Below, in pieces: positions 4,669 to 63,678 of a stretch of DNA of 64,000 bases. The notes below the pieces were generated by a model that was not told where the DNA came from, did no database searches, and saw nothing but the letters and a program-made list of their open reading frames with translations. The number at the start of each line of letters is the position of its first letter. Position 1 is the stretch's first letter. Source of the DNA: Haliotis asinina (Eukaryota); NCBI RefSeq assembly GCF_037392515.1, contig NC_090294.1:7457870-7521869 (forward strand). Reading direction: 5' to 3'. The translations under genes were made by a program, and so were the position numbers.

Positions 4669-4871
4669 ATGATGATGAGCTGTTTGCTCCTCAAGCAGAC
4701 CAGACAGGTACTGTTCTGGAGGGTCCAGGTGCAAAGAGGGAGATGAAACCATTCACCCTGCCTAAATTAGGATCTTCACAACAAGATTCCATAGCAAGAG
4801 CCAAGAAGTATGCAATGGAGCAAAGCATTAAGAGTGTTCTTGTCAAACAGACAATAGCTCATCAACAACAG
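4669..4871 (+). CDS. PUF60: PUF60-like exon (…[46 protein letters not shown])
   Basis: Acceptor ccacag|at, donor cag|gtaaga. The [23 protein letters not shown] block is near-identical to the vertebrate PUF60 N-terminal region. Confidence 0.8.
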
Positions 4872-5308
4872 GTAAGAAGCTGCTTCCTTGAGCTCGTTCT
4901 GAATATTGGTACAAAAGCTAACAAATTTATCTTGTACATCAGACCGATGTCAGAGGAGTAGTAGTCTTCGTAAGAGGCGATGGACAGGAAGTGTCCATCC
5001 ACAACTAGGTTGATGGATTCAATATTTTCACCTTAGACTGTTGCTCATAGATGTTGAGAGAACTTGCAGAGTTTTGTGCAGTATTGCAGAATTTTGTCTT
5101 GTTTGTCATAACAGTCAAGAAATAACACAGAATGAATGATTTTGTTCGATCATGCATTGGGCTGCTTTGATGATAGTTGTCACTTACAGAAAATGTTGGT
5201 TTGAGACATTGAGAGTAATAGCCTTTTCCTGTGTCATTTTTTATATAATTAAGTATTAATGACCTCCTCTTGTTACGAAAGTGTGACAGTGTTCAATTTT
5301 GTTTTCAG

Positions 5309-5367
5309 CAAATGCAGAATTTCCAGAACACTGTTCAAAGACAACAAGCTTTAGCACTAATGTGCAG
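5309..5367 (+). CDS. PUF60: PUF60-like exon (QMQNFQNTVQRQQALALMC-R)
   Basis: Acceptor ttttcag|ca, donor ag|gtatga. It aligns to PUF60 QRQRALAIMCR, and its phase joins cleanly to the next exon (MCR-IYVGS). Confidence 0.75.
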
Positions 5368-5670
5368 GTATGAATTTTCTTCACTGTACAGAGTTCACTA
5401 CAGTACAAAAAGCCGTTTATACTCTGAACAACTCTGAAGTGAGGGTGTTTTAATTTTGTCTTTCAAGATTGATACTCATGTTTGTAGGTCACAATGTTAG
5501 GCAGTGCTTGAAGTTGCAACTTCATCTGAAGTTCAAACTTTGAATTCACACACTCTTGTCTCTGTTTGATAAAACAAAAATTTCTTAATGCCACACCCAA
5601 GGATAGAAGATATATTTGTGTTATGCATATAAAATCTGTCCAAGCCTTAACATCTATCATCTTTTTACAG

Positions 5671-5884
5671 GATATATGTTGGCAGCATTAACTTCGAGAT
5701 AAAAGAGGACACCATCAAGCAAGCTTTTCTTCCATTCGGCCCCATCAAAAGCGTCAATCTGTCATGGGACCCTATCACAAACAAACACAAGGGATTCGCA
5801 TTTATCGAATACGACGTTCCAGAAGCGGCCCAACTAGCCTTAGAGCAGATGAATGGCGTTATGATTGGAGGCCGCAACATCAAG
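5671..5884 (+). CDS. PUF60: PUF60-like exon, RRM1 ([72 protein letters not shown])
   Basis: Acceptor ttacag|g, donor aag|gtggct. About 70% identical to human PUF60 RRM1 ([72 protein letters not shown]). Confidence 0.9.
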
Positions 5885-7272
5885 GTGGCTTGATATTTGA
5901 CCGTGATACTTTATATTCTCTTAGAAGGACATACCCTATGGTTTAGTTTGGCACTTTGATGAAATTATTTCATGCGTTTGCACATCAGATCTAGATTAAG
6001 TGTTGTCAAATGTAGAGCAATATAATTTTTAACCTTTTGGGAATGTTTTCTTGAGGCTCAGTTATCATTTGGAGAAATGATTTGCAAACACATGATGTAG
6101 TCACACAAAGACGCAGATTTCTAAATTCATTGACATGTAGCTTTGTTGCTTTTTGAATTTGTGAGGCGCTTATGAGTTTTATAAACATTAAGCTTGATTT
6201 GTGAAGAAAGGAAATCGAGTAAGTATATTGATACATGTGTAAATATCCTGCATTCCCTCAGACATTATTTATAAAGGTTTCTCATTGTTTTTAGAATAGT
6301 TTGATTAATCTGCATCTTTGTACCTGCTTTCAAGACCATCAAAAAGATTAAATGTTTACAATGAACTTGGCATACGGTCACTGCTTCTTATACACATTTG
6401 TGTGTGGTTTTTTTTTCAATTTTGATAAGTGAAAAAAAACGTGTCTTGAAGGCTACCTTTCTGGGTATGTCCTCTTAAGATGAATAATTCAAGCAAACAA
6501 TTATGATTATTTTGTTATATCACTATCCAGCTGATTCTTCACTAGACTGTTCTTTTGTGTTTTCTTACCCATAGTTCTGACAAGTAAAATGATAGAAAAT
6601 GAAATATTTTGAAGGACTATATTTGGTTCTCTAATCACGATGTATGCTAATCTACCATAAACCATGCTCTCGAATTTATTATCTTTACATGCGATAATAT
6701 TAGACCTGAAGCTGTCCAAAGACGAAGAGCGCCAAGAGATTTGGCTGAAGGGAGGTAACTCTATGTATTAGCCAGCTGACACTTATGGGTGGAATGCCCT
6801 GGGTGTAGTGTTTCTGAAAAAAAACAAGTACATACAGGCTTTTTTTATTTTAAAACCGATAAAACACCTTAAAACAAGAATTAGTTCATTGTAGAGCTTG
6901 TTTTACTAATTATTTGTGTTGTTATAGCCTCCCAATCTTCAGGGTTTTCTTAATATACCCTGGTACATGTTTAAGTTAATAATGCAAGTATATTAAACAA
7001 TAGATTTTTGTAGTAAAAAGTATTTAGACTAAAATACAATGTTTTCATCCATTCATTCATCATGAACATAAATGTTTTCACTACAACAGAGTATTGCTGT
7101 AGGACGCTCTCCTAGCCTTTGTCGATTTGATGTTTGCACACCGTCATAATGTATAACAATTCTAAATGCTGAACTAATAAGTCGTTTATTAGATTGATTT
7201 GTTGTTGGAAGGTGTGCACCTTCAGTTAAGGATGCTTTGATGCTAATAGTTATTTTGTGTACATTGTTTCAG

Positions 7273-12949: not shown

Positions 12950-13380
12950 CATCCATGTCGCAACGATCCGTCTATTTAACAACCAAATTTTCTGGTTACC
13001 ACGATCATTCAACAACCTAAACACAGTTCGTCATCCGTCGAAAACGATCATTCATCTATCAAACATTCATGCAACCGTCTAACCACGATCATTCACCATT
13101 GATACATCACCTGACCACGATAATTCAACCATCCTACCACCCTCATTCATATATCTACCACGATAATTCAACCATCCTACCACTCTCATTCATATATCTA
13201 CCACGGTAATTGGACCATCCTACCACGATCATTCAACCATATAATACGATCATTCAACAATTGAACCACGCTGATTCGACCATCTTACCACGATAATTTA
13301 ACCATCTAAACACGATCATTCAACCATTAAACCACTATAATTCAACCATCCTACCACAATCATTCATGTCGATTTACCCA
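12950..13380. repeat. Degenerate tandem repeat (~25-30 bp unit, ccacgatcattcaaccatcctacc)
   Basis: Visible head-to-tail periodicity with many variant copies. Confidence 0.6.
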
Positions 13381-15640: not shown

Positions 15641-17360
15641 ACACGCATGCACGTCGTCAGATGGCGAAATAATAGTCTTACCTCACCTATCTTATAACAT
15701 CATTCGCCTATGGACAAGAGCTACCAGCAGTTCGGATATCTTAAACACGAGTTAAATTACATTTGCGTCGCCATTCGATTGTCCGCTCGCTCCATTACCT
15801 TTTCTGGAATGGAGCGATGATTACCAGTTTCAGTTGTAAAACCTTGATATTTCATACGCTTTGTCTTACATTTGGCTAATAAAAGTACAAATACTTTGAA
15901 TGTACTCAAAGTAGGGCAACATCCTCGTAGCCCTCCAATCCTTAAAAATATGGGAGCTTTTCTGACATTACCCTCTACATATGGTCTCAGTCGTTAAGGG
16001 TTTCACCACAACATACAGACTATGTATTATAGCAGCAAATAGTATCGCTTCTTCCGTATAGGAAATGTAGATATTCGCTATGATTCTGAAAAACAACAGG
16101 GAATACGTCCTATCTAAGATATACTAACATGTCAAAGAATAAAATAATGTTCCTATGTTACTTTGAATAACCACAAGGCATACTGTAGTGTCAAGTGCTC
16201 AGTATATCCTACCGACAAGTGCTTTTAACGCTGACAAATGACCCCACGCAGTATAAAATAACGTGTAGAAATAACGTCAAGGACAAACGAAATGTCACAT
16301 TTGCCTGGTGACGAATACTGGGAGGGAAAGGTAGATGTGACATGATGATGTCTCCGATATGGATTATGTCAAGGTAACGAGGAACCTGCTCCACAGTGTT
16401 GGAGGCAATAAAACGTACGGTGTAGCAGGGAGAAACCTTTACTTGAAATATTTTTAACCAACTGACGCACGTCTTGACAAATATATGTAAACTATCTTTG
16501 AAACCAACCAAGAAATTATAAATGAAAAAACTTCGTCAAATAAGGAGATCCATAAAAGCTTTCCAGCTATCAACGCGAGGTCTCTGGGGGAAAGGTGTTT
16601 TAGTCAGAACAACAGACTAACGACTAGTCTCTGTAATGACCATATTTCACAGAAATAATGCTCACATTAAAAAAAGCAGAATGTTATGAAAAGGAGCCCT
16701 GAGACATTCCCTTGAAGCATTCCCTTGTAATCAAGACTTGCCACATTTTCGAGACTTGCATGGGCTTTCTTGGATATATCTGCTTGAAGGTCTGCATGAC
16801 AGACTATCAGACCATAATCTCGCGGCAAATATGAATTCCTATCCTTGGATGGAAGGGAATCTATAGAGCTACGATCATTTTATTACTTTTATCAGTTGTG
16901 TCATTTTATCGGGTCTTCCAAGAGAGATTGTTAACAATTCAAAACGTTTCAATGCAATTGAAAGTTTAGGAGTAAGACATGTACGTATAATTCAGAAAAT
17001 GTTCCCAGTTATGTCAATTATGAATGTTCATGTAATGTCAAGTAATTGTAAATACACAATTTTGATCAGCTGGATACTAATCAGCGTGACCATTACAAGT
17101 AAGCCTGGTGTATTGTTTATAATCTATTGAGAACAATAAGACCTTGGTCGATTGTGAGAGCCATCGAACGCAGTTCATGTAATTATCTGTCTGACAGTTC
17201 ATGAAACACATTACTTTGCCTACTGCCAAGCCTTCTCTGCAGTGCTAAAGCCTTAAATGAAACAAGTCTAAATGTGCTCAGGTTCTGGTCTCCCTGTGGC
17301 TCCGTTTCAGTTAAAATGGGTTTGTTTGTTACCATCAGAATTGTAGATATTCAGACTGAT

Positions 17361-17572
17361 GGAATGAGTAGTTTTACGCCGCACTCAACGCTATTCCACC
17401 TAAATGGCTGCGGTTTGTAAATAATCGAGTTTGGACCAGACAATACAGTGGTCAACAGCATGAACATCCATCTGAGCATTTGGGAATCAATGACATGTGT
17501 CAACCAAGTCGGCGAGCCTGACCACCCGATCCCGTTAGTCGCCTCTCACGACAAGCATAGTCACCTTTTATG
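17361..17572 (-). mobile_element. SINE family A copy, interrupted by the nested MULE insertion (remainder at 19981-20040)
   Basis: (GAGT)n-like start, then tttacgccgcactcaacgctattccacctaaatggctgcggtttgtaaataatcgagt…gcgagcctgaccacccgatcccgttagtcgcctc. It is collinear with the 20293-20570 copy. Continuity resumes at 19981 (tttatggcaagcatgggttgctgaagg…). Confidence 0.7.
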
Positions 17573-17939
17573 ACGGTGTCGGCCCGGGAGAGCTACTTTT
17601 TAAATTAGCGTAGTTCCGGGAAAGCTATTTTCTCCAACACAAGATTGTACCGCCAAAGCTACTTAACTGAATAAACACTGTGATCAGCTAACCCTAACAA
17701 TTACCGATTAATGGAAAAAACGACCCCTGTGATTTTCTCTCTTTTAATGCGATTTGTTTCCTATTAGGATCACAGAGTATAGCATCCAAATGTGTGATGT
17801 TTACAATTTTGACGAGAACTACATCCTCATCCAACTCACATCTACTCATGTTTGTCAGTTTCCTATCTCTCATTATATATATTTATCTGATGGGGCTATA
17901 CCTTCAGTCATCATGTACTCTGTGAAGACAAACATGTTA

Positions 17940-18985
17940 TAGACAGAGACACAGGACTGTTCCCAGACTGCCTGCTTCCAGGCCTGAGATTCATCTTGAG
18001 GACAAGTGGGCTGAGACAGAAGCTGGCGAGAGATTCCTTCATCGGATAAGCAACGACATCCTCCTCTTCACCACAGACAAGAACATGTAGATCCTGTGTG
18101 GCGCAGATACAATATGTTGTGACGGAACATTCTTTGCTGCACCTCGTCTCTTCGACCAGATATATACAATTCAAGCCCAGTTCCAAGGACACATGTTTCC
18201 CCCTAGTGTATGGACTGCTACCAGATAGGCAGGAGACAACTTACTCTGCTGTGTTCGAGTACCGTCATCAGTTGGCTGAGACCCTGAACTTGCATTTCAG
18301 TCCTCCTGTTGTTCAGCTGGATTTTGAGTTGGCAGCCAATAATGCAGTAAGATCGGCTTTCCCCCCAACAACCCATCTTTTTCCATTATTGTCAGTGCCT
18401 TTGGAGGAGAGTCCAGAAAGAGAACCTCGTCAACGACTACAAGGAGGACGATGATGTGCGGAGGATAGTACGTCGAGCTGCTGCTCTTCCCCTTGACAAA
18501 GTAGATAATATTTGGTTAGAATGTATTGCTGACAGCCCCGATGACCTCAAAGTGCGATCATTCATGGATTATGTGACTGCTTCGTAGGTGGAGGGTAACC
18601 GGTTTTCCCCATTGGTGTGGAACCATTTCGGAAACGATGGACCAAGGACAAATAACCACCCAGAAGGGTTCCATCACAAACTTAATCAGTAAGCCAGAAA
18701 GAGTCATGCCAATATTTTTGAAGTCGTTGGAGTTTTCCAAAGGGAGCATTCAGTGAGCGAAGTGTCCTGTGCCCGACTAACATCCTACCCTAGTGCTTCA
18801 CAGAGGAAACGCCGCTACCGGCGGATAGACAGTCGTCTTAGATCCCTGAGTCAAGATCTACGGAGCCAGGACATAGCTGATATGAAATATGTTGACTGTG
18901 TATCTGAACTGTTAAAACTGGAGCGATGTGAGGATTACAATGATGAAATGGCAGTAACTGCTTACAGGAATATTTTTGTGTAAAC
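17940..18985 (+). pseudogene. MULE/MuDR-superfamily DDE transposase remnant with frameshifts and stops
   Basis: Frame pieces …ILCGADTICCDGTFFAAPRLFDQIYTIQAQFQGHMFPLVYGLLPDRQETTYSAVFEYRHQLAETLNLHFSPPVVQLDFELAANNAVRSAFP… give D…D…E spacing. Downstream in another frame lies …VWNHFGNDGPRTNNHPEGFHHKLNQ…, the RTNNxxE motif typical of MULE-family transposases. Confidence 0.55.
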
Positions 18986-19084
18986 TTACATTTTACATGT
19001 ATATACATTTATTTCATTTAATATATGGCAAGCAAAACCGAACAAATTAAATATGGTGAGTACGGTAACTTAGTTTTTTATTGC

Positions 19085-19925
19085 CTTCATTCCCGGTAAA
19101 GCTACATCTCCGTAATCACAAACCGTGACGCACCCCATCCTCTATGACCGGTAAAGCTACACCTCCGTAATCACATACCGTGACGCACCCCATCCTCTAT
19201 GACCGGTAAAGCTACATCTCCGTAATCACATACCGTGACGCACCCCATCCTCTATGACCGGTAAAGCTACATCTCCGTAATCACATACCGTGACGCACCC
19301 CATCCTCTATGACCGGTAAAGCTACATCTCCGTAGTCACATACCGTGACGCACCCCATCCTCTATGACCGGTAAAGCTACATCTCCGTAATCACATACCG
19401 TGACGCACCCCATCCTCTATGACCGGTAAAGCTACATCTCCGTAATCACATACCGTGACGCACCCCATCCTCTATGACCGGTAAAGCTACATCTCCGTAA
19501 TCACATACCGTGACGCACCCCATCCTCTATGACCGGTAAAGCTACATCTCCGTAATCACATACCGTGGCGCACCCCATCCTCTATGACCGGTAAAGCTAC
19601 ATCTCCGTAATCACATACCGTGGCGCACCCCATCCTCTATGACCGGTAAAGCTACATCTCCGTAATCACAAACCGTGGCGCACCCCATCCTCTATGACCG
19701 GTAAAGCTACACCTCCGTAATCACAAACCGTGACGCACCCCATCCTCTATGACCGGTAAAGCTACATCTCCGTAATCACAAACCGTGACGCACCCCATCC
19801 TCTATGACCGGTAAAGCTACATCTCCGTAATCACATACCGTGAGGCACCCCATCCTCTATGACCGGTAAAGCTACACCTCCGTAATCACAAACCGTGAGG
19901 CACCCCATCCTCTATGACCGGTAAA
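19085..19925. repeat. 55-bp minisatellite, ~15 units (unit ccggtaaagctacatctccgtaatcacataccgtgacgcaccccatcctctatga)
   Basis: Near-perfect head-to-tail copies with only a/t and a/g variants. The unit contains ccggtaaagctac, which resembles the MULE TIR core cccgggaaagctac. Confidence 0.9.
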
Positions 19926-20292
19926 GCTACCCCTACTTTCCTCTTTATAATTAAGAAAGTAGCTTTCCCGGCCCATAACATTTATGGCAAGCATGGGTTG
20001 CTGAAGGCCTATTCTACCCCGCATCTTCACGGGTCAGATATTCAAAGGCTAGGTATGAGTCTATTCATGTAATATCATACAAGGACGTTATTTCTTGTGC
20101 TGATGGGCAAACAAAGCAAGTACGCCTCTGAGAGATGTTTTAGGTTACGGACTATGAACACATTTGACAGTATTTTACGTGTTCACCAGAACATGTTTGA
20201 AAATCCCGTGTAGAGAATTCAATATACCGACCTCTGGAACAACCAAATAACTTTTTAAGTTCATAACCTCACTTACATTCATATAAACTGGT

Positions 20293-20570
20293 AGTGAGTG
20301 AGTGAGTATAGTTTCAAGCCGCACTCAGCAATATTCCAGCTATATGGCGGCGGTCTGTAAATAATCGAGTCTGGACCAGACAATACAGTGACCAACAACA
20401 TAAGCATCGATCTGCGCAGCTGGGAACCGATGACATATGTCAACCAAGTCAGCGAGCCTGACCACCCGATCCCATTAGTCGCCTCTTACGACAAGCATAG
20501 TCGCCTTTTATGGCAAGCATGGGTTGGTGAAGTCCTCTTCTACCCCGGGAACTTCATGGGTCTACAGATT
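20293..20570 (-). mobile_element. SINE family A, full-length-looking copy
   Basis: (gagt)n gtatagtttcaagccgcactcagcaatattccagctatatggcggcggtctgtaaataatcgagtctggaccagacaatacagtg … gcgagcctgaccacccgatcccattagtcgcctcttacgacaagcat … ggttggtgaag. The same consensus recurs at least 6 times in the window. Confidence 0.75.
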
Positions 20571-22839
20571 AACAAGTAAACCATATGCACTGACTGAATA
20601 TATGGCGGGCAGAGCGGAATGAGTTTGACTAGGAACAAGGAACATTAGAGAATGAATCTGCAATCCGAGATCGGTGTACAGTGTGTTTCCGATAGCGATA
20701 ACCAGGATTGTCATGAGGAACATGAAACAATGGAAGTTTAGACTTTTTTGAATCTTATGTAAAACTATGTCTTCTTCGTGGCTACATAAAACTCTCTGAA
20801 AGCTTCACTGAAGCCTTGAATGTCGTAAACTTGACCAAACGCGTTCCGTGCAAGAGTGGTAAGACGTTGTTTCAAATCTTGGTAAAAAGAGCCTGATCGA
20901 ATGTGTGTAAATTTTTGTGAAATATAAACACGAAAGGCTTGATACTGTTGGAATATTATGCGGCATAAAAGGGAGATTAAGCACTGGGAACCCAATCATT
21001 GGTAGAGTTAGGTCAGTAAGCAGAGAATGTGTCATTGAGTAGGAGAATACAATGCACAATACACATTTTCAACATACATATACTGGACAAAAATAGTTAG
21101 GGATATATGTAAATTTTGAAATTATGAATAATGATCTGTTTATTCATTGACACACTGATGAAATAGCCATCATAAAATTACAAATTTCCTTAAGCTATTT
21201 TGTTCTGTATATTTACGCTTCTATTCCCCTGTAATCTAGTGATAACTGAATAATGTTTTGCTGTAATAAATGATCTATAGCATGGGGATGCCGGAGATAT
21301 GGTTGTTACTGCTTATTGGAGTTACCCCATCTCCATAGAAATGTCTAACTTAACTGGGCATTGATGACAATGGTGTTTATAGGTGAAATGTACTATGAAT
21401 CACATTGGCTGCTCAACTTGTGTGTCGCCGTGTCCATTTTCCCCATGTACATATTATGATACAGTCGGATTATTTGACAGGGTGAATATGCTCGCTGGTG
21501 AGGCGAACTAGACAGTAAGAGCCAAGGTAATCTAACACATGCATATGCTTTTGACAGTTACAAATAAACCCATATAAGTTGAAAAGGGAGACCCAGTTTG
21601 CTGGGACAGTCAGGGGAACTTGAGGAAATCTGGACTTGCGTCATTTAGGTTAGCAATGCAGGGAGGGCTTGACATTAGGGGCAGTGATGTGTTTCAGGGA
21701 CTGTGAGGCTGACTAGTATCAAGGCTGTCCCTCAGTCATGTTCAGGCGCCTGTGTCTCCCGTCCCGGCCCGTGTCGCTCACAATGACCCTCTTTCACCAT
21801 CTGGGAACGCGACCATCATGTCGCCTGTTTGTGTATGTAACTGGACACCAGCGCAGATTCAGGAAGTCGGTGTTTGGAACAATTTGTACTGCCGTGCAGG
21901 TTGTGATGGGAACGTGTGGTTTGACACTTATCGCAGTAACTGTTTTATACCACAAATCGATCTTCCTTGAAAATGTTTTTTAACAACCTACCTACATTAC
22001 AGCAAGTCGCATATGTGCTCCTTATGAAATGTTCACTCAAATAAATAATTCATGAACACGAATCAAATGCTCAGTTTAATTAAAGAATTGATGAATTAAA
22101 TGCTCTATACTCATATGTGGCACCGTATATTATACTGGTTGGTACCAAGAGGTTATCAATCTGCTAAAAACCCAGCGCAGTTCAATGTTGATATTTATAT
22201 ATTACCAAGCAGTGTTTGTGGTTTTAAAGACCAATAAATGCTAGGTATTCGAGGTGCAAGGTGCAAGCAACAACTGTTTGTCAATTAACCTGGCTCTTAA
22301 TTATTCGAGGGGTATGGAAAAATAGATTCAAATATTTTTCATGAAATCGGATGCACGTTTTAACCTATTACTTCTTGGTATGCGAACGATCATGGTGTGT
22401 ATCCGTCTGAATCTTGCTAGATGATCTTAGCTGATTAGATCACGAGAAGAATTGAGAGTAATCATGGTAGTAATCCTCCTTCAGTTCCTCCAAATTAAAC
22501 AAATAGATTCATTACGTGGGTTCCATCATTGTCTATCTCGAATATATGTAGACAGTATTTTTACGAGCCAAGACTCGCGCCTCTTTGGTAATAAGCACTA
22601 TCGCGTGGGCTCAATAAGAGCAAGATACGTTAACTCCAAGTACAAAGATACTGCTTGAAATAAACCTCAATAAGTGAATACAAAACACATGGCTGATTGA
22701 AACGGCGGCACCATGGTCTTGTTTGGTAAATATTGTGTGTCCTTGGGGCATTTCTGCACATCACGTGTTCATCACGTGTACTGGTACTGTTCACTGGATC
22801 AGTGAATTCAGTCAGTGTTGACTGTAGACAGAGCCTGGG

Positions 22840-29210: not shown

Positions 29211-29560
29211 GGGAAAAATTAATCTGTCATACACAGACAAGAGCATTCCTGAACCAAACAAAAGCATTCCTTAGGAGCACAAAAAAAATTCCTTAAGGAG
29301 CGTAGGAGCAGCCTTAGGGGTCAAAAGAAATTCCTATAGGAGCGTAGGAGCAACCGTAGGGGTCAAAAGAAATTCCTATAGGAGCGTAGGAGCAACCTTA
29401 GGGGTCAAAGGAAATTCCTATAGGAACGTAGGAGCAACCTTAGGGGTCAAAAGAAATTATTATATGTGCTCCCAGGTGCATACAGGTTCGCTATCTCACA
29501 TTCCATAGGTGTCACATTTAGACAATACACATTTCTTCTATACAATATCAAATTCTTATA
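29211..29560. repeat. Polinton left TIR with 4 copies of a ~42-bp subterminal repeat (ccttaggggtcaaaagaaattcctataggagcgtaggagcaa)
   Basis: Reverse-complement match to 39620-39830, and the tandem copies at 29267-29452 are visible. Confidence 0.8.
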
Positions 29561-32402
29561 GTTTTCTTTGTTTTATATTATAAACAAATATAAACTATTC
29601 AAGTTGTTTTACACTCCATTTAATCATGTTCACTTCAAAACAGTTTTACATGTAGACAAGAGACACGTAATTATGCGGTGAAAGGGTTAATCGCACTTAT
29701 TCACCACATGCGACAAACTCTCCAGTGTACACTCGAACACCATGTTTACATAACAATAAAATGTAGGTCGCCTCATCCCGCTTCGCGTTTCATACACAGT
29801 ATAGTTATAATCTACCTCCCTAGTAGTGCATGAAATTCAAACACAAAGTACTAGTATACTACAACAGTGAGTTGAATTCAAGTCATAATGTAGGATATCT
29901 CGTCTTGCATACTCATACTTAGAACAGTTTACTAGAACAGTGAGGTAAATTCAGCATTAATCATTCAGTTTGATTTACACTCCTAGTCGTGCTTATTTAA
30001 CACAGCCAAGTACATTCAAACCCCATGCTGTCATCACATGCTTTCATAACGTATATAATGAAAATCGCTTTGTCACTCATACAGAGTATCGTTATATAAT
30101 GTTTGCTTGCTAGCAGTTCAAACATCCATTTTTAGAACTCTTAAACTGGGTCAGCTGACTCTATGTATATATTTTTCAAAAGTAGACTGCAAAGTAAATA
30201 GGGTCTATGCGATACAGGGAGTGAATTGAAAGAAGTGTAAATATCCGATAATTACTGAACCGAAAACGATACTTGCAAAGTCCTTGACATTGATAAAAAG
30301 TTCATCACTTTTAGTTACTGCTTTCATAGAAAAGAAAACAAATGATTGTTGCTTAATAAACATATTATAATTTTACCCACATTGAATGCAAACATAGGCA
30401 TGACAAATCCAGCATCAATACCAAAAATCTCATTCTCTTTATCCAATCAATCCAGTCACTGCAGATCAAATCCCTTTTCGTGGACGAACAAGTATGTACT
30501 TGTAGAAAAACAATCAGATAAAAGATAATAGCAGTTATGTTGTTTTACTCAACTAAAAACCACAGTGACAAGAGAAAGAGAGATTCATCAGCTTGTGTGA
30601 ACCAGCAGGCAATGTCAGCTTGGTATTGAAATGTTATCATAAAGTATACAAGCTTATGATAACGTATCCTGTTAACTTAATGTTCACATGACTATTATAA
30701 TGAAACAACCATAACTGAGAGATGATATAACAAAATGTAGAAAGTAGAAACCCTTTTGTTCTTCCCATCTTTAACAGAAAAATCGTCCTCCTGATGGGAA
30801 ACATCCATCTCCTCCTCCTGATGAGAACATTCCATTCCCTCCTCCTCATGGGAACATCCACGTCCCTCCTTCTCCTCCTCCTCCTAATAGACACACCAAC
30901 TCCCTCCTCTCTTGATGGGAACATCCACGTCCCTCCTTCTCCTCCTCCTCCTAACAGACACACCAACTCCCTCCTCTCTTGGTGGGAACATCCACCCTCT
31001 ACACACTTACATATGCATACTCTGAGGACTGAAGTAAACCTAAGTCTTTAAAGGTCACATGCAACCAAAACATCAAACATAATTAAACATATTTATCACT
31101 TATTCATGACATATAATATACATTGCTGCTTTTAAAAAAACGAATAAACAAAATTATAAGCGTACAATCGCGATTCAAAAGTGCAATATTTTGTACTTGG
31201 GCTTACTTCCCCCGAAACTAAGCCCTCGGGAGACCGAACCCAGTCGTAGCGGGTGGATCTGCACTCAAGTGTAACGACGGCTTCCGATTGGCTGTTTCAT
31301 TTGCTGATATGCTGAGGGTTCATTGTGTGTACAGAAAGATGATCTGTTTGATGGGCATTTTAGAACTTCTTCTATTGTACTTGATGCGTCGTTTCAGTAT
31401 GGATTCATATACTGTACATATACTGTCAAACAAAACATCATATACACTAAAAGAAGTTGTTATCCATGAAGAATGTATATTGAGATGTTAGGTTTTGAAA
31501 ATACATGTTCTCTGAATTTGAGCTCGATCCAATAAAAAATCATCTCAGTAGAGATGGCAAACTACTGCGTGGCTGGAATCTGTCATTCGTCCAACTACAA
31601 AGCAGGACTTGAAACTGACAAGAGTTTGCACCAGGTTCCGTCAGATCCACTCATCCGAAAAAAATGAATGTAGTTTGTTTGCAACCCACAGGCATAAGCA
31701 CATGTCATGTGTATCAGACCTGCCTAATTACATAATGTGGCAGAGACGGGAGTCGGATGCACGAGTCATACATCAGTTTATTTTCTTAATGTCGTATTGT
31801 CTGATAGGTGTTAAGTTCAAATTGCACGTGGTCAGTGATTGAAGCTGTGTACTGCATGTTGTCTTTAGCAGACAGGCAGGCAGACATATAGGTGTGAATA
31901 AACCAGACACTGAGCTTTCTCTGAGAGACTGCTTACCACAATCAACATGTTTTTTTACGTAACGAGTAGATTATTTACTTGTTTTTGTACACAACCAAGA
32001 TTAGTCTAATGCTCACAACCTCAGACTCCGGACATGCATACTGTTTCAAGCTCCGCGAACTTATTCACTGCACATGCGGTATGGACGCAGCGCAGCACAG
32101 CTGTTGCTCACTGGTATCTAGCAAAGAAACAGTTTTATGCTTTCCTGCTTAGAGAAAGGACATATTGTTGAACCATGAGGACAAATTCAACAAATGATAT
32201 ACTTGGACCTATATCATCACAGAGAAGAGCAAAATCATGTAAAAGAGCATCACTGATGAAAAGAAAAGACAATTTAATCTACAAGAAAAAGAAGAGGAAC
32301 ATGAGAGGCAAGATAGGAACAAAGCCTCCACAGAAAATACAGCACGAGCCAAAACTAAATTGAAATGAGCTCAACCAAAATTGATACATAACTAGATGGT
32401 TA

Positions 32403-56699: not shown

Positions 56700-57900
56700 A
56701 AACGGACACAAGAAATGTGTAAACGTGTGTCCAGTGGTCAACATTCAGTTAGCACTGACTATCTTAACGGCATGTACTCGTCCTGTGGTAAACATTCAGT
56801 TAGTACTGACTATCATAACGGCATGTACTCGTCCTGTGGTAAACATTCAGTTAGTACTGACTATCTTAACGGCATGTACTCGTCCTGTGGTAAACATTCA
56901 GTTAGTACTGACTATCTTAACGGCATGTACTCGTCCTATGGTACACATTCAGTTAGTACTGACTATCTTAACGGCACGTACTCGTCCTGTGGTCAACATT
57001 CAGTTAGTACTATCTTAACGCCACGTACTCGTCCTGTGGTAAACATTCAGTTAGTACTGACTATCTTAACGGCATGTACTCGCCCTGTGGTAAACATTCA
57101 GTTAGTACTATCTTAACGCCACGTACTCGTCCTGTGGTAAACATTCAGTTAGTACTGACTATCTTAACGGCATGTACTCGTCCAGTGGTCAACATTCAGT
57201 TAGCACTGACTATCTTAACGGCATGTACTCGTCCAGTGGTCAACATTCAGTTAGTACTGACTATCTTAACGGCATGTACTCGTCCAGTGGTCAACATTCA
57301 GTTAGTACTATCTTAACGCCACGTACTCGTCCTGTGGTAAACATTCAGTTAGTACTGACAATCCTAACGGCATGTACTCGTCCTGTGGTCAACATTCAGT
57401 TAGCACTGACTATCTTAACGGCATGTACTCGTCCAGTGGTCAACATTCAGTTAGCACTGACTATCTTAACGGCATGTACTCGTCCAGTGGTCAACATTCA
57501 GTTAGCACTATCTTAACGGCATGTACTCGTCCTGTGGTCAACATTCAGTTAGTACTGACAATCCTAACGGCATGTACTCGTCCAGTGGTCAACATTCAGT
57601 TAGCACTGACTATCTTAACGGCATGTACTCGTCCAGTGGTCACCATTCAGTTAGCACTATCTTAACGGCATGTACTCGCCCTGTGGTAAACATTCAGTTA
57701 GTACTATCTTAACGGCATGTACTCGTCCAGTGGTAAACATTCATTTAGCTCTGAGTATCTTAACGGCATGTACCCGTCCTGTGGTAAACATTCAGTTAGC
57801 ACTGACTATCGTAACGGCATGTACTCGTCCTGTGGTAAACATTCAGTTAGTACTGACTATCTTAACGGCATGTACTCGTCCTGTCGTAAACATTCAGTTT
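56700..57900. repeat. 51-bp satellite, ~24 units including 42-bp short variants (unit cattcagttagtactgactatcttaacggcatgtactcgtcctgtggtaaa)
   Basis: Near-identical head-to-tail copies. The overlapping + ORFs in the six-frame track (56689-57918) are periodic artefacts of the 51 = 3x17 unit. Confidence 0.9.
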
Positions 57901-60600: not shown

Positions 60601-60660
60601 GTGAGTGAGTTAATATTTAACGTCACATGGGCAATATCTCAGCCACATCGTGACGAAAAC
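60601..60660 (+). mobile_element. SINE-like family B head immediately 5' of the 60-bp satellite
   Basis: gtgagtgagttaatatttaacgtcacatgggcaatatctcagccacatcgtgacgaaaac matches the heads at 25177 and 46563. Confidence 0.6.
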
Positions 60661-62470
60661 AATTCATAAAATAAAAAAAGAAATATTTGCAGTCTGAGAA
60701 GCTGAAGAAGACTGTGACTGTTGACGGAGGTTGAGTGATTGGGGCTTTCATGGAGAAGCTGAAGAAAACTATGACTGTTGACGGAGGTTGAGTGATTGGG
60801 GCTTTCATGGAGAAGCTGAAGAAGACTGTGACTGTTGACGGAGGTTGAGTGATTGGGGCTTTCATGGAGAAGCTGAAGAAGACTGTGACTGTTGACGGAG
60901 GTTGAGTGATTGGGGTTTTCATGGAGAAGCTGAAGAAGACTGTGACTGTTGACGGAGGTTGAGTGATTGGGGCTTTCATGGAGAAGTTGAAGAAGACTGT
61001 GACTGTTGACGGAGGTTGAGTGATTGGGGCTTTCATGGAGAAGCTGAAGAAGACTGTGACTGTTGACGGAGGTTGAGTGATTGGGGCTTTCATGGAGAAG
61101 TTGAAGAAGACTGTGACTGTTGACGGAGGTTGAGTGATTGGGGCTTTCATGGAGAAGCTGAAGAAGACTGTGACTGTTGACGGAGGTTGAGTGATTGGGG
61201 CTTTCATGGAGAAGCTGAAGAAGACTGTGACTGTTGACGGAGGTTGAGTGATTGGGGCTTTCATGGAGAAGCTGAAGAAGACTGTGACTGTTGACGGAGG
61301 TTGAGTGATTGGGGTTTTCATGGAGAAGCTGAAGAAGACTGTGACTGTTGACGGAGGTTGAGTGATTGGGGTTTTCATGGAGAAGCTGAAGAAGACTGTG
61401 ACTGTTGACGGAGGTTGAGTGATTGGGGCTTTCATGGAGAAGCTGAAGAAGACTGTGACTGTTGACGGAGGTTGAGTGATTGGGGTTTTCATGGAGAAGT
61501 TGAAGAAGACTGTGACTGTTGACGGAGGTTGAGTGATTGGGGTTTTCATGGAGAAGCTGAAGAAGAGTCTGACTGTGACTGTTGACGGAGATTGAGTGAT
61601 TGGGGCTTTCATGGAGAAGCTGAAGAAGACTGTGACTGTTGACGGAGGTTGAGTGATTGGGGCTTTCATGGAGAAGCTGAAGAAGACTGTGACTGTTGAC
61701 GGAGGTTGAGTGATTGGGGCTTTCATGGAGAAGTTGAAGAAGACTGTGACTGTTGACGGAGGTTGAGTGATTGGGGCTTTCATGGAGAAGCTGAAGAAGA
61801 CTGTGACTGTTGACGGAGGTTGAGTGATTGGGGCTTTCATGGAGAAGTTGAAGAAGACTGTGACTGTTGACGGAGGTTGAGTGATTGGGGCTTTCATGGA
61901 GAAGCTGAAGAAGACTGTGACTGTTGACGGAGGTTGAGTGATTGGGGCTTTCATGGAGAAGCTGAAGAAGACTGTGACTGTTGACGGAGGTTGAGTGATT
62001 GGGGCTTTCATGGAGAAGCTGAAGAAGACTGTGACTGTTGACGGAGGTTGAGTGATTGGGGTTTTCATGGAGAAGCTGAAGAAGACTGTGACTGTTGACG
62101 GAGGTTGAGTGATTGGGGTTTTCATGGAGAAGCTGAAGAAGACTGTGACTGTTGACGGAGGTTGAGTGATTGGGGCTTTCATGGAGAAGCTGAAGAAGAC
62201 TGTGACTGTTGACGGAGGTTGAGTGATTGGGGTTTTCATGGAGAAGCTGAAGAAGACTGTGACTGTTGACGGAGGTTGAGTGATTGGGGTTTTCATGGAG
62301 AAGCTGAAGAAGACTGTGACTGTTGACGGAGGTTGAGTGATTGGGGTTTTCATGGAGAAGCTGAAGAAGACTGTGACTGTTGACGGAGGTTGAGTGATTG
62401 GGGCTTTCATGGAGAAGCTGAAGAAGACTGTGACTGTTGACGGAGGTTGAGTGATTGGGGCTTTCATGGA
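60660..62470. repeat. 60-bp satellite, ~30 units (unit gagaagctgaagaagactgtgactgttgacggaggttgagtgattggggctttcatg)
   Basis: A highly homogeneous array with c/t and g/t variants. It generates a 614-aa minus-strand periodic ORF ((MKAPITQPPSTVTVFFSFS)n), which is most likely an artefact of the 60 = 3x20 periodicity. Confidence 0.9.
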
Positions 62471-63678
62471 GAAGCTGAAACGTGTTCCTCCGACATGATC
62501 CTAGTCAAATCAGTCTGACATGCCATACAGGACGTTGTCACGGTTATATATACGAAAAATATAGGGTATTCAGTGGAGTTGAGATCTGTTTTTGGAACAC
62601 TTATTCAGCATCAAAGTATGAAATGTTGTTTTTTCACACTTGATCTTCATGATTATAAAAATCTCCCTTAATACAGGACAGGACCTAGATGAAGATGGAT
62701 TTGGACCATCGCAGTTTGCAAATTTATGATCTTTTTCACAGTCCACATACTTAAGGCAATATTGTGAGCCGTGACCGAACTTCTGATATTTGTAACATCC
62801 AAATGGAAATAGTCGGCTTTAAGTGATTGTGAACCTTTTTTATTCGGGAGATGTTTCGATACAGATCCTTGAACGTAGGGAAAGCTGTTTATTTTGTGTA
62901 ACATTACATACAGTTGATTATGTACTTGATAATTATCACTCTTGGTAATGAGGTCTTTAATAGTCATTTAAAAGATATACACATAAGGAGGAGAGTTTTC
63001 TTATGGATATCAACTTCTTTATTGTGAGGAACACTTAATAAGAAGTGTTCGTTATAATAAAGAAGTCGACATCCATAAAAACCAATCTTCCTTATAATGC
63101 TTGGTTTTAACTCATGGTCTGCTACAAGGTTATGAAGAAGGTACAAGTCCACATCCGATGATTTCGACCTTAAACACATTTTCCCCTATTATAAAGGCAA
63201 CCTGGATACACACTCTCCTGTAAATGCAGACAGTCATGCCACAGTCATGTTAATGTTAAAGTGACAGTACGATCGTGAATTTCGTCATAAGCAAACTGCC
63301 TATACCGGTACTCTGTTAAAACCGGCAGTTTTATTTGGTCCCGAGTGATGCCGGTATTGACAGAGCACACTGCATTACCATCTGTTACATGCAACAGGGC
63401 TTTCAAAAATAACGCTTGCAACTGTCACATATCTATGTTTTTTCAGTCATGTAACAGTAATGTGAAGGTGTCAGTGCATCGGATGCAGTAAACAGATATC
63501 TTTGCCATAAAGTCACTTTAATAACGGGCTTAATCATGATAGTGCATTGGTTAAAGATTAACATTATGTGTGGTTGTATTCCACCTGTTGCCAATGTATC
63601 AGACAATATAACTTATGATTCACAAAAGGCACAAGAAATGTTCACGCAGTTTCAGACGTCTGCTGTTAGACTACCGTT

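Follow-up and report, generated by a model that had tools for sequence, protein, structure and literature searches.

A decayed FLYWCH-type MULE in Haliotis asinina with a minisatellite probably built on a 3' subterminal motif

Here we describe a DNA transposon nested in a short interspersed repeat within a 64,000-nucleotide stretch of the Haliotis asinina genome (NCBI RefSeq assembly GCF_037392515.1, contig NC_090294.1, positions 7,457,870 to 7,521,869 of the forward strand; this whole 64-kb stretch is hereafter called the window, and positions are given relative to its first letter). The element is 2405 bp long (17575-19979, + strand), non-autonomous and decayed, and is bounded by target-site duplications (TSDs) and by termini that are common to related loci in other abalones. 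We consider it very likely that the element is no longer active and belongs, as a non-autonomous member, to a clade of FLYWCH-type MULEs in Haliotis, and that it carries a minisatellite built on a direct motif of its 3' subterminal region. Three related elements served for comparison, one each from H. rubra (L001), H. rufescens (L013) and H. cracherodii (L003, in JAJLRC010000004.1); the transposases are ~52% identical. A first-pass annotation of the window had already proposed a MULE-like transposon in a SINE (short interspersed element), with a minisatellite grown from a subterminal repeat. Every component that it had observed is present in the sequence, and chance accounts for none of them.

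Insertion site and target-site duplication

On either side of the element (17354-17574 and 19980-20036), the sequence belongs to an interspersed repeat of ~270 bp, of which the window contains five other copies, with 75-94% identity to these flanks. In all, this host repeat is present in six copies of ~200-270 bp, on both strands and with 75-87% identity. The part to the left of the insertion (17354-17565, + strand) is 75-87% identical to the five other copies, and the part to the right (19989-20036, + strand) is 80-94% identical to the 3' parts of other copies. In a multiple alignment, the four other copies that span the insertion site read CATAGTCACC-TTTTATGGC-AAGCATGGG, one of them exactly and three with one to three changes. 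The consensus 9-mer TTTTATGGC is found once in each of these four copies and is doubled at the element, where it reads TTTTATGAC on the left (17566-17574) and ATTTATGGC on the right (19980-19988, placed by the host-repeat alignment). Each of the two is one base off the consensus, and between them 2 of 9 positions differ. We take the TSD to be 9 bp long; a length of 10 bp is conceivable, the preceding C also matching. The claim that a SINE-like copy had been split by an insert of ~2.4 kb is thus borne out, since other copies show the uninterrupted site, and the split points given for it were right to within a few bases.

The host repeat is short, dispersed and present in multiple copies, and is plausibly a SINE. 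ARAGORN detected no tRNA-like sequence in the window, and no Rfam match was obtained in 17000-20700, in or around the element. The missing tRNA-like head does not exclude a SINE, because several kinds of Haliotis SINE have been published, some of them with heads derived from long interspersed elements (PMC4824008, PMC4758252); HalSINE1, Hdi MESC and the LP-SINEs are among those described.

The 3' non-coding part of the MULE holds an 11-mer, TATGGCAAGCA (19024-19034), that is identical to the host repeat at 19985-19995, just to the right of the insertion. With a rough chance expectation of ~0.07, this sharing may be coincidence.

Termini of the element

The element ends in terminal inverted repeats (TIRs); each arm (17581-17607 on the left, 19948-19974 on the right) measures 27 nt, and the two are 85% complementary. 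Aligned locally, the arms score 34; shuffled sequences average 10.5 and reach 23 at most, and 0 of 5000 shuffles attain the observed score. Beyond each arm are six more terminal bases whose inversion is imperfect (GGTGTC at the left end, CATAAC at the right end); they belong to the element because the related Haliotis loci have the same ends. The left TIR (17575-17607, + strand), consisting of the hexamer GGTGTC and the 27-nt arm, begins with GGTGTCGGCCCGGGA, common to L001 and L013. The right TIR (19948-19979, - strand), consisting of the 27-nt arm and the terminal CATAAC, has the terminus CCCGGCCCATAAC, to be compared with CCCGGCCCACAAC in L013 and GGCCCATAAC in L003. The 19-bp inverted repeat of the first-pass annotation is therefore real, 19 bp being its core, but the TIRs are longer (27-nt arms and six further bases).

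These termini recur in other Haliotis elements of the same clade; the annotation had named their absence from other copies as a refutation, which at the level of the clade does not apply. L001 and L013 share the left terminus, GGTGTC(G/C)G(C/G)CCGGGA, and L013 and L003 share the right one, which ends in CCCGGCCCA(T/C)AAC. L001 starts with GGTGTCCGCCCGGGA and has perfect TIRs of 22 bp. L013 starts with GGTGTCGGGCCGGGA, and its flanks, CAAAAAAAC and CAAATAAAC, form a 9-bp TSD of its own with 8 of 9 positions matching. In L003 the left end is lost or displaced. A 27-nt inverted repeat with termini kept in all three relatives agrees with what is expected of the MULE superfamily.

Two copies of another repeat family in H. 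rubra (L001, 3914-3928 and 12125-12139) start with GGTGTTCGTCCGG(G/A)AGATTATC, which resembles the left terminus of the MULE; in one of the two, a 20-bp x 3.2 tandem repeat follows.

Transposase remnant and classification

A transposase pseudogene with a MULE DDE domain, and without the FLYWCH N-terminus, occupies approximately 17923-18926 on the + strand, as delimited by Pfam PF10551 and a tblastn map. The coding remnant is spread over three frames and is interrupted by three in-frame stops and at least two frameshifts, in keeping with the frameshifted transposase remnants first reported here. When stitched together, it matches the Pfam MULE domain (PF10551) with 34.5 bits, above the gathering cut-off of 27.6 bits. 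Its best relative is an H. asinina 'uncharacterized protein' (P0001; 87% identity, E 1e-185); close relatives are mostly from Haliotis, and more distant ones are found in other molluscs, which marks the window as abalone nuclear DNA. PF10551 is present in all 35 database relatives. Sixteen of these, among them most of the longer proteins, which reach 542 residues, contain FLYWCH (PF04500) as well. This second domain sits at the N-terminus and reaches 44.4 bits in P0003. The catalytic columns D62, D128 and E243 are invariant in the transposase alignment, and their codons are preserved in the remnant.

The MULE-domain DDE transposase, the 9-bp TSD and the TIRs place the element in the MULE superfamily, and not in hAT or P. 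Nine base pairs is the canonical length of a MULE TSD. Both the window element and L013 have 9-bp duplications, and the published range for MULEs is 8-11 bp (PMC6446971). We find it barely conceivable that the insertion represents another superfamily (hAT, P or similar) or a fragment of a host gene. The short TIRs of animal MULEs could superficially resemble those of other superfamilies, and nothing else speaks for such an origin. Against it, the sole Pfam match is to the MULE domain and lies above the cut-off, all relatives are MULE or FLYWCH-MULE proteins, the TSD measures 9 bp rather than 8 bp, and TIRs and TSD are both present. Such an origin is effectively refuted already, and the MULE-type transposase of the first-pass annotation has withstood the superfamily test, which excluded hAT and P.

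The remnant covers only part of a full-length transposase. Homology becomes detectable from position 114 of a profile of the relatives' N-termini; the open reading frame (ORF) is short of ~113-130 N-terminal residues. Over the 350 bp between the left end and the remnant, upstream of ~17923, no FLYWCH match was obtained with either Pfam or the profile. An upstream extension of the transposase homology in another frame (ORF 17754-17942), apparent by eye, was rejected, as the N-terminus profile did not support it. Because FLYWCH homology is missing upstream of the remnant, the copy stems from a 5' deletion derivative that had lost its presumed DNA-binding domain. It has kept the termini of the family and encodes no functional transposase, as is characteristic of a non-autonomous deletion derivative.

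P0001 starts with MYRQRH..., where the homology of the window copy begins (window 17929-17945), and is an intact ORF of 335 aa without FLYWCH. Either the same 5'-deleted subfamily exists elsewhere in H. asinina, or the annotated start is simply the first ATG within a longer gene. When P0001, P0002 and the element's longest ORF were looked up as exact proteins, no copy of the same subfamily was retrieved. L013, too, has lost its 5' part, in a deletion independent of the one described here. L003 contains a near-intact, full-length FLYWCH and MULE transposase ORF (4785-6176) with a single in-frame stop, which makes it a candidate for a near-autonomous relative.

The FLYWCH domain of the relatives points to the Phantom-type MULEs of animals, published members of which may have no finger, FLYWCH or SWIM (PMC6446971). 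The PHD finger of Rehavkus elements was absent from Pfam scans of the remnant, P0001 and P0003, in which only MULE, with or without FLYWCH, was found.

Motif and site architecture

The inner core of the TIR, CCGGGA(A/G)AGCTAC, is repeated in the subterminal regions. When up to two mismatches are allowed, the 13-mer CCGGGAAAGCTAC occurs 20 times in the window, and 20 of 20 occurrences fall inside the element: 3 direct copies near the left end, 16 direct copies in the minisatellite and 1 inverted copy near the right end. The three direct copies on the left, of the form CCGG(G)A(A/G)AGCTA(C/T) (17584-17596, 17616-17628 and 17650-17662, + strand), stand at +9, +41 and +75 from the left end, with corresponding offsets in L013 (+9, +41 and +76) and L001 (+9 and +41). 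On the right, the inverted copy lies within the TIR and ends 8 nt from the end of the element, as it does in L013 and L001, and the right-end spacing is the same in L003. A direct copy starts 61 nt from the right end in 4 of 4 elements (window, 19918; L013, 6014/6075; L003, 6383/6444; L001, 7463/7524). In the window element, this conserved subterminal site (19918-19930, + strand) is the last motif of the minisatellite. The 5' half of the motif (CCGGGAA) is constant and the 3' half varies by sub-lineage (GCTAC, GTCGAC or GGCGA), so that the L003 lineage has CCGGGAAGGCGA and its sister lineages have CCGGGAAAGCTAC and CCGGGAAGTCGAC.

Repeats of the inner TIR at fixed subterminal positions have the look of transposase-binding sites in characterised elements. 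By this analogy, the repeated motif is a putative binding site of the family transposase, which would probably contact it through the FLYWCH finger. Muta1 has nine 12-bp subterminal repeats, and their number varies among its derivatives (PMC5225508). More speculatively, the fixed architecture with its varying 3' half could be the trace of a recognition code in which FLYWCH transposases and the DNA sites that they bind evolve together, and the tandem array of 16 sites could act as a transposase sink or mobilisation enhancer instead of being neutral slippage debris; we regard these two ideas, taken jointly, as improbable.

When metagenomes were scanned for paired motif copies at a distance of 30-60 bp, the only matches were tandem repeats of 22 bp in human-gut bacteria, unrelated to the element. 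The 13-mer CCGGTAAAGCTAC lies inside this 22-bp repeat in the bacterial contigs concerned (L004-L012), which is a chance match. A scan of viral contigs for the 55-bp unit of the minisatellite found nothing.

Structure, origin and age of the minisatellite

The minisatellite spans 19093-19930 (+ strand). Tandem Repeats Finder gives it a period of 55 bp and 15.2 copies, with a score of 1578 and 98% matches, and the array of 15 copies of 55 bp described initially is thereby recovered. Each unit consists of the 13-nt motif CCGGTAAAGCTAC (R) and a 42-nt spacer (S). The array opens and closes on the motif: the surplus 0.2 unit is exactly one motif, giving the form (R+S)x15+R, in which the closing R coincides with the conserved motif 61 nt from the right end. 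Between the unit motif and the TIR core, 12 of 13 positions agree. The array ends 17 nt before the right TIR arm, and thus occupies the place immediately before the 3' TIR that is described for the Rehavkus minisatellites.

In the relatives, the same region is occupied by simpler arrangements. In L013 and L003, a pair of direct motifs is spaced by 43 bp (R-S-R) and does not form a tandem array; L001 has a single direct motif (R) and no array. The motif, the phase that it sets within the array and the position of the array link the minisatellite to the subterminal repeat, and an origin of the array from the subterminal motif is well supported by these sequence comparisons. The proposal of the first-pass annotation that the minisatellite is an expanded subterminal repeat accordingly has good support, given that the motif corresponds to the TIR core, the array is phased on it, its last copy stands at the conserved 61-nt site and array-free relatives exist.

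The element was inserted by cut-and-paste into the SINE-like repeat, generating the 9-bp TSD. Its transposase gene has kept the DDE domain, has lost the N-terminal FLYWCH region and is now broken by stops and frameshifts; to move, such a copy would have needed the transposase of a full-length relative acting in trans. For the array, a sequence of events can be proposed. The ancestral 3' end probably had two direct motifs around a spacer (R-S-R), as in L013 and L003. R+S may then have been duplicated when these motifs were misaligned in replication slippage or in unequal exchange, and further unequal exchange may have expanded and homogenised the product to (R+S)x15+R, with most of the growth taking place after insertion, at this locus. 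The birth of minisatellites through slippage or unequal exchange between short flanking direct repeats has been reviewed (PMC6947457), and the pattern seen here, with the R and R-S-R states kept in relatives beside the expanded array, is the one that this standard model predicts. The Muta1 derivatives with their varying numbers of subterminal repeats (PMC5225508) are a further precedent.

Several observations bear on when the array grew. Its units have a mean pairwise difference of 2.8%, adjacent units are more alike than non-adjacent ones, and the six central units are almost identical. The array (19093-19930) has a CpG observed/expected ratio of 1.26, compared with 0.60 for the remainder of the element and 0.63 for the window as a whole, and 0 of 5 variant positions of the array are CpG-to-TpG or CpG-to-CpA changes. 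The rest of the element is old, as judged from the two mismatches between the TSD copies and from an ORF that has been broken at least five times. Because its units are near-identical and CpG-rich, whereas the rest of the element is decayed, we conclude that the array grew or was homogenised long after the insertion, and the simplest assumption is that this happened at this locus.

Some points weigh against this reading of the element and its array. No significant similarity was found when the 42-nt spacer was compared with the spacer between the L013 motifs, with the 3' tail, with the 3' untranslated region and with the 5' subterminal region of the element: the observed scores were reached in 701 of 5000, 2492 of 5000 and 190 of 1000 shuffles, and nothing beyond the motif could be aligned. 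Homology of the array with the subterminal region would therefore be carried by the 13-nt motif and its position. Binding of the transposase to the motif is argued from analogy. The flanks of L001 show no clean 9-bp TSD, with 6 of 9 positions matching in the best register; L001 was used for the conservation of termini and architecture only, and not for the TSD. Finally, the comparison covers relatives within the clade, none of them of the same subfamily, and the array may be specific to this locus or may have been carried by a master copy.

If the spacer is given full weight, the array could be an unrelated minisatellite, or a second nested insertion, that shares its 13-mer with the TIR by chance. 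Minisatellites with units of 50-57 bp are common in the window, and the bacterial 22-bp repeat shows that the same 13-mer can arise by chance in an unrelated sequence. We nevertheless judge this explanation to be very improbable. By our own calculation, the chance of a 12/13 match within a 55-bp unit is ~5e-5; the array is in phase with the motif at its left and right ends alike, and the final motif copy stands at the conserved distance from the end of the element. Moreover, the motif is restricted to the element within the window, and no separate TIRs or TSD flank the array.

A different objection concerns timing. The minisatellite may already have been in the element when it transposed, as a feature of the family, in the manner of Rehavkus and aphid Phantom elements, for both of which minisatellites have been reported (PMC6446971). 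Concerted evolution can keep an old array homogeneous, and the restriction of the comparison to clade relatives also leaves room for this course of events. However, no array is present in the three related Haliotis elements whose 3' end is intact, and the units are 97-98% alike and free of CpG-decay variants in an element that is otherwise visibly decayed. We thus hold prior carriage of an array, perhaps a shorter one, to be unlikely, although a good deal less so than an unrelated origin, and favour growth of the array at its present site.

Relation to known systems

There is a close likeness to the Phantom-type (FLYWCH) MULEs of animals, including Muta1 of Aedes aegypti (PMC6446971, PMC5225508). 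Shared features are a DDE transposase with the Pfam MULE domain and, in the relatives, an N-terminal FLYWCH; a TSD of 8-10 bp (9 bp here); a TIR motif that is repeated subterminally; and non-autonomous derivatives with a variable number of subterminal repeats. Members of Phantom in aphids also have a minisatellite after the ORF. The differences are equally clear. The present host is a gastropod mollusc, absent from the host list of the group in PMC6446971, and this copy is devoid of FLYWCH. The TIRs of Muta1 are 145 bp long, compared with ~33 nt here, and its 12-bp repeats have 3-4-bp linkers, whereas the motif copies here are 32-34 bp apart. Membership of the Phantom clade (group 20 of PMC6446971) is tentative; the same paper has separate 'MULE-Mollusca' and MULE-Cg groups.

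Rehavkus elements (Repbase; PMC6446971) share the 9-bp TSD and the minisatellite immediately before the 3' TIR, but their transposases have a PHD finger, whereas the relatives of the present element have FLYWCH. Short tandem arrays in non-autonomous DNA elements of molluscs are known from DTC84 of Donax trunculus (PMC3879986) and from the Helentron arrays of Crassostrea gigas (PMC7492417). In those cases the carriers are miniature inverted-repeat transposable elements of unknown superfamily or Helentrons, and the arrays are a regular feature of the family. Here, by contrast, the carrier is a MULE with a transposase remnant, and array-free relatives show the single-copy precursor site. The (R+S)n+R form and a relative with the R-S-R precursor correspond to the model of Haber and Louis 1998 (as summarised in PMC6947457); the direct repeats in that model are arbitrary ones of 5-10 bp, whereas those considered here are 13-nt, presumptively transposase-binding motifs.

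No component of the element is thus without precedent: animal FLYWCH MULEs and 9-bp TSDs are known, and so are deletion derivatives, TIR-core motifs repeated subterminally, minisatellites placed ahead of the 3' TIR and arrays of tandem repeats within mollusc DNA transposons. What is locally new is the architecture of ends and sites in the abalone clade, and the preservation of the R and R-S-R precursors beside the expanded array. For annotation, the ends, the TSD and the subterminal architecture are now defined for a clade of FLYWCH-type MULEs in abalone genomes; published surveys give mollusc MULEs without TIR or TSD data (PMC6446971, Table 1). The locus also offers a natural illustration of a minisatellite that would have been seeded between two subterminal repeats of a transposon, with the unexpanded precursor surviving in relatives. 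No current view of transposons or tandem repeats is challenged by it.

A second transposase remnant

A second, heavily decayed FLYWCH-MULE transposase remnant, of an independent lineage, lies at 47094-48367 (+ strand; tblastn E down to 3.5e-25). It had been listed at 47100-48420 as a copy of the same transposase family. It is indeed a real, decayed MULE remnant of the same clade, but it belongs to a distant lineage and not to the same narrow family: the two remnants have 28% amino-acid identity (E 4e-22), and no nucleotide similarity was found between them. The stitched N-terminus of the second remnant aligns with FLYWCH over positions 1-62 of the 62 of the profile, with a score of 16.9 bits (E 0.007) that is below the cut-off. 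No inverted repeat, GCCCGGGA terminus or other recognisable terminus was found nearby.

Other tandem repeats in the window

The window is rich in both interspersed and tandem repeats. Its 57-bp x 31 minisatellite (60696-62479, 97% matches) has a unit length divisible by three, and an ORF of 614 aa (60623-62467, - strand) is open through it, with the 19-aa repeat MKAPITQPPSTVTVFFSFS. The array could be a repetitive coding exon or merely have a stop-free unit. A 51-bp x 23 tandem array (56729-57899) has higher-order periods of 149 and 200 bp. Inverted repeats flanking or spanning these two large arrays were sought and none were found; embedding in a transposable element is therefore not general for the arrays of this window. 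Further short tandem arrays are located at 13114-13366 (22/43/65 bp), 29280-29458 (42 bp) and 30786-30995 (27/67 bp).

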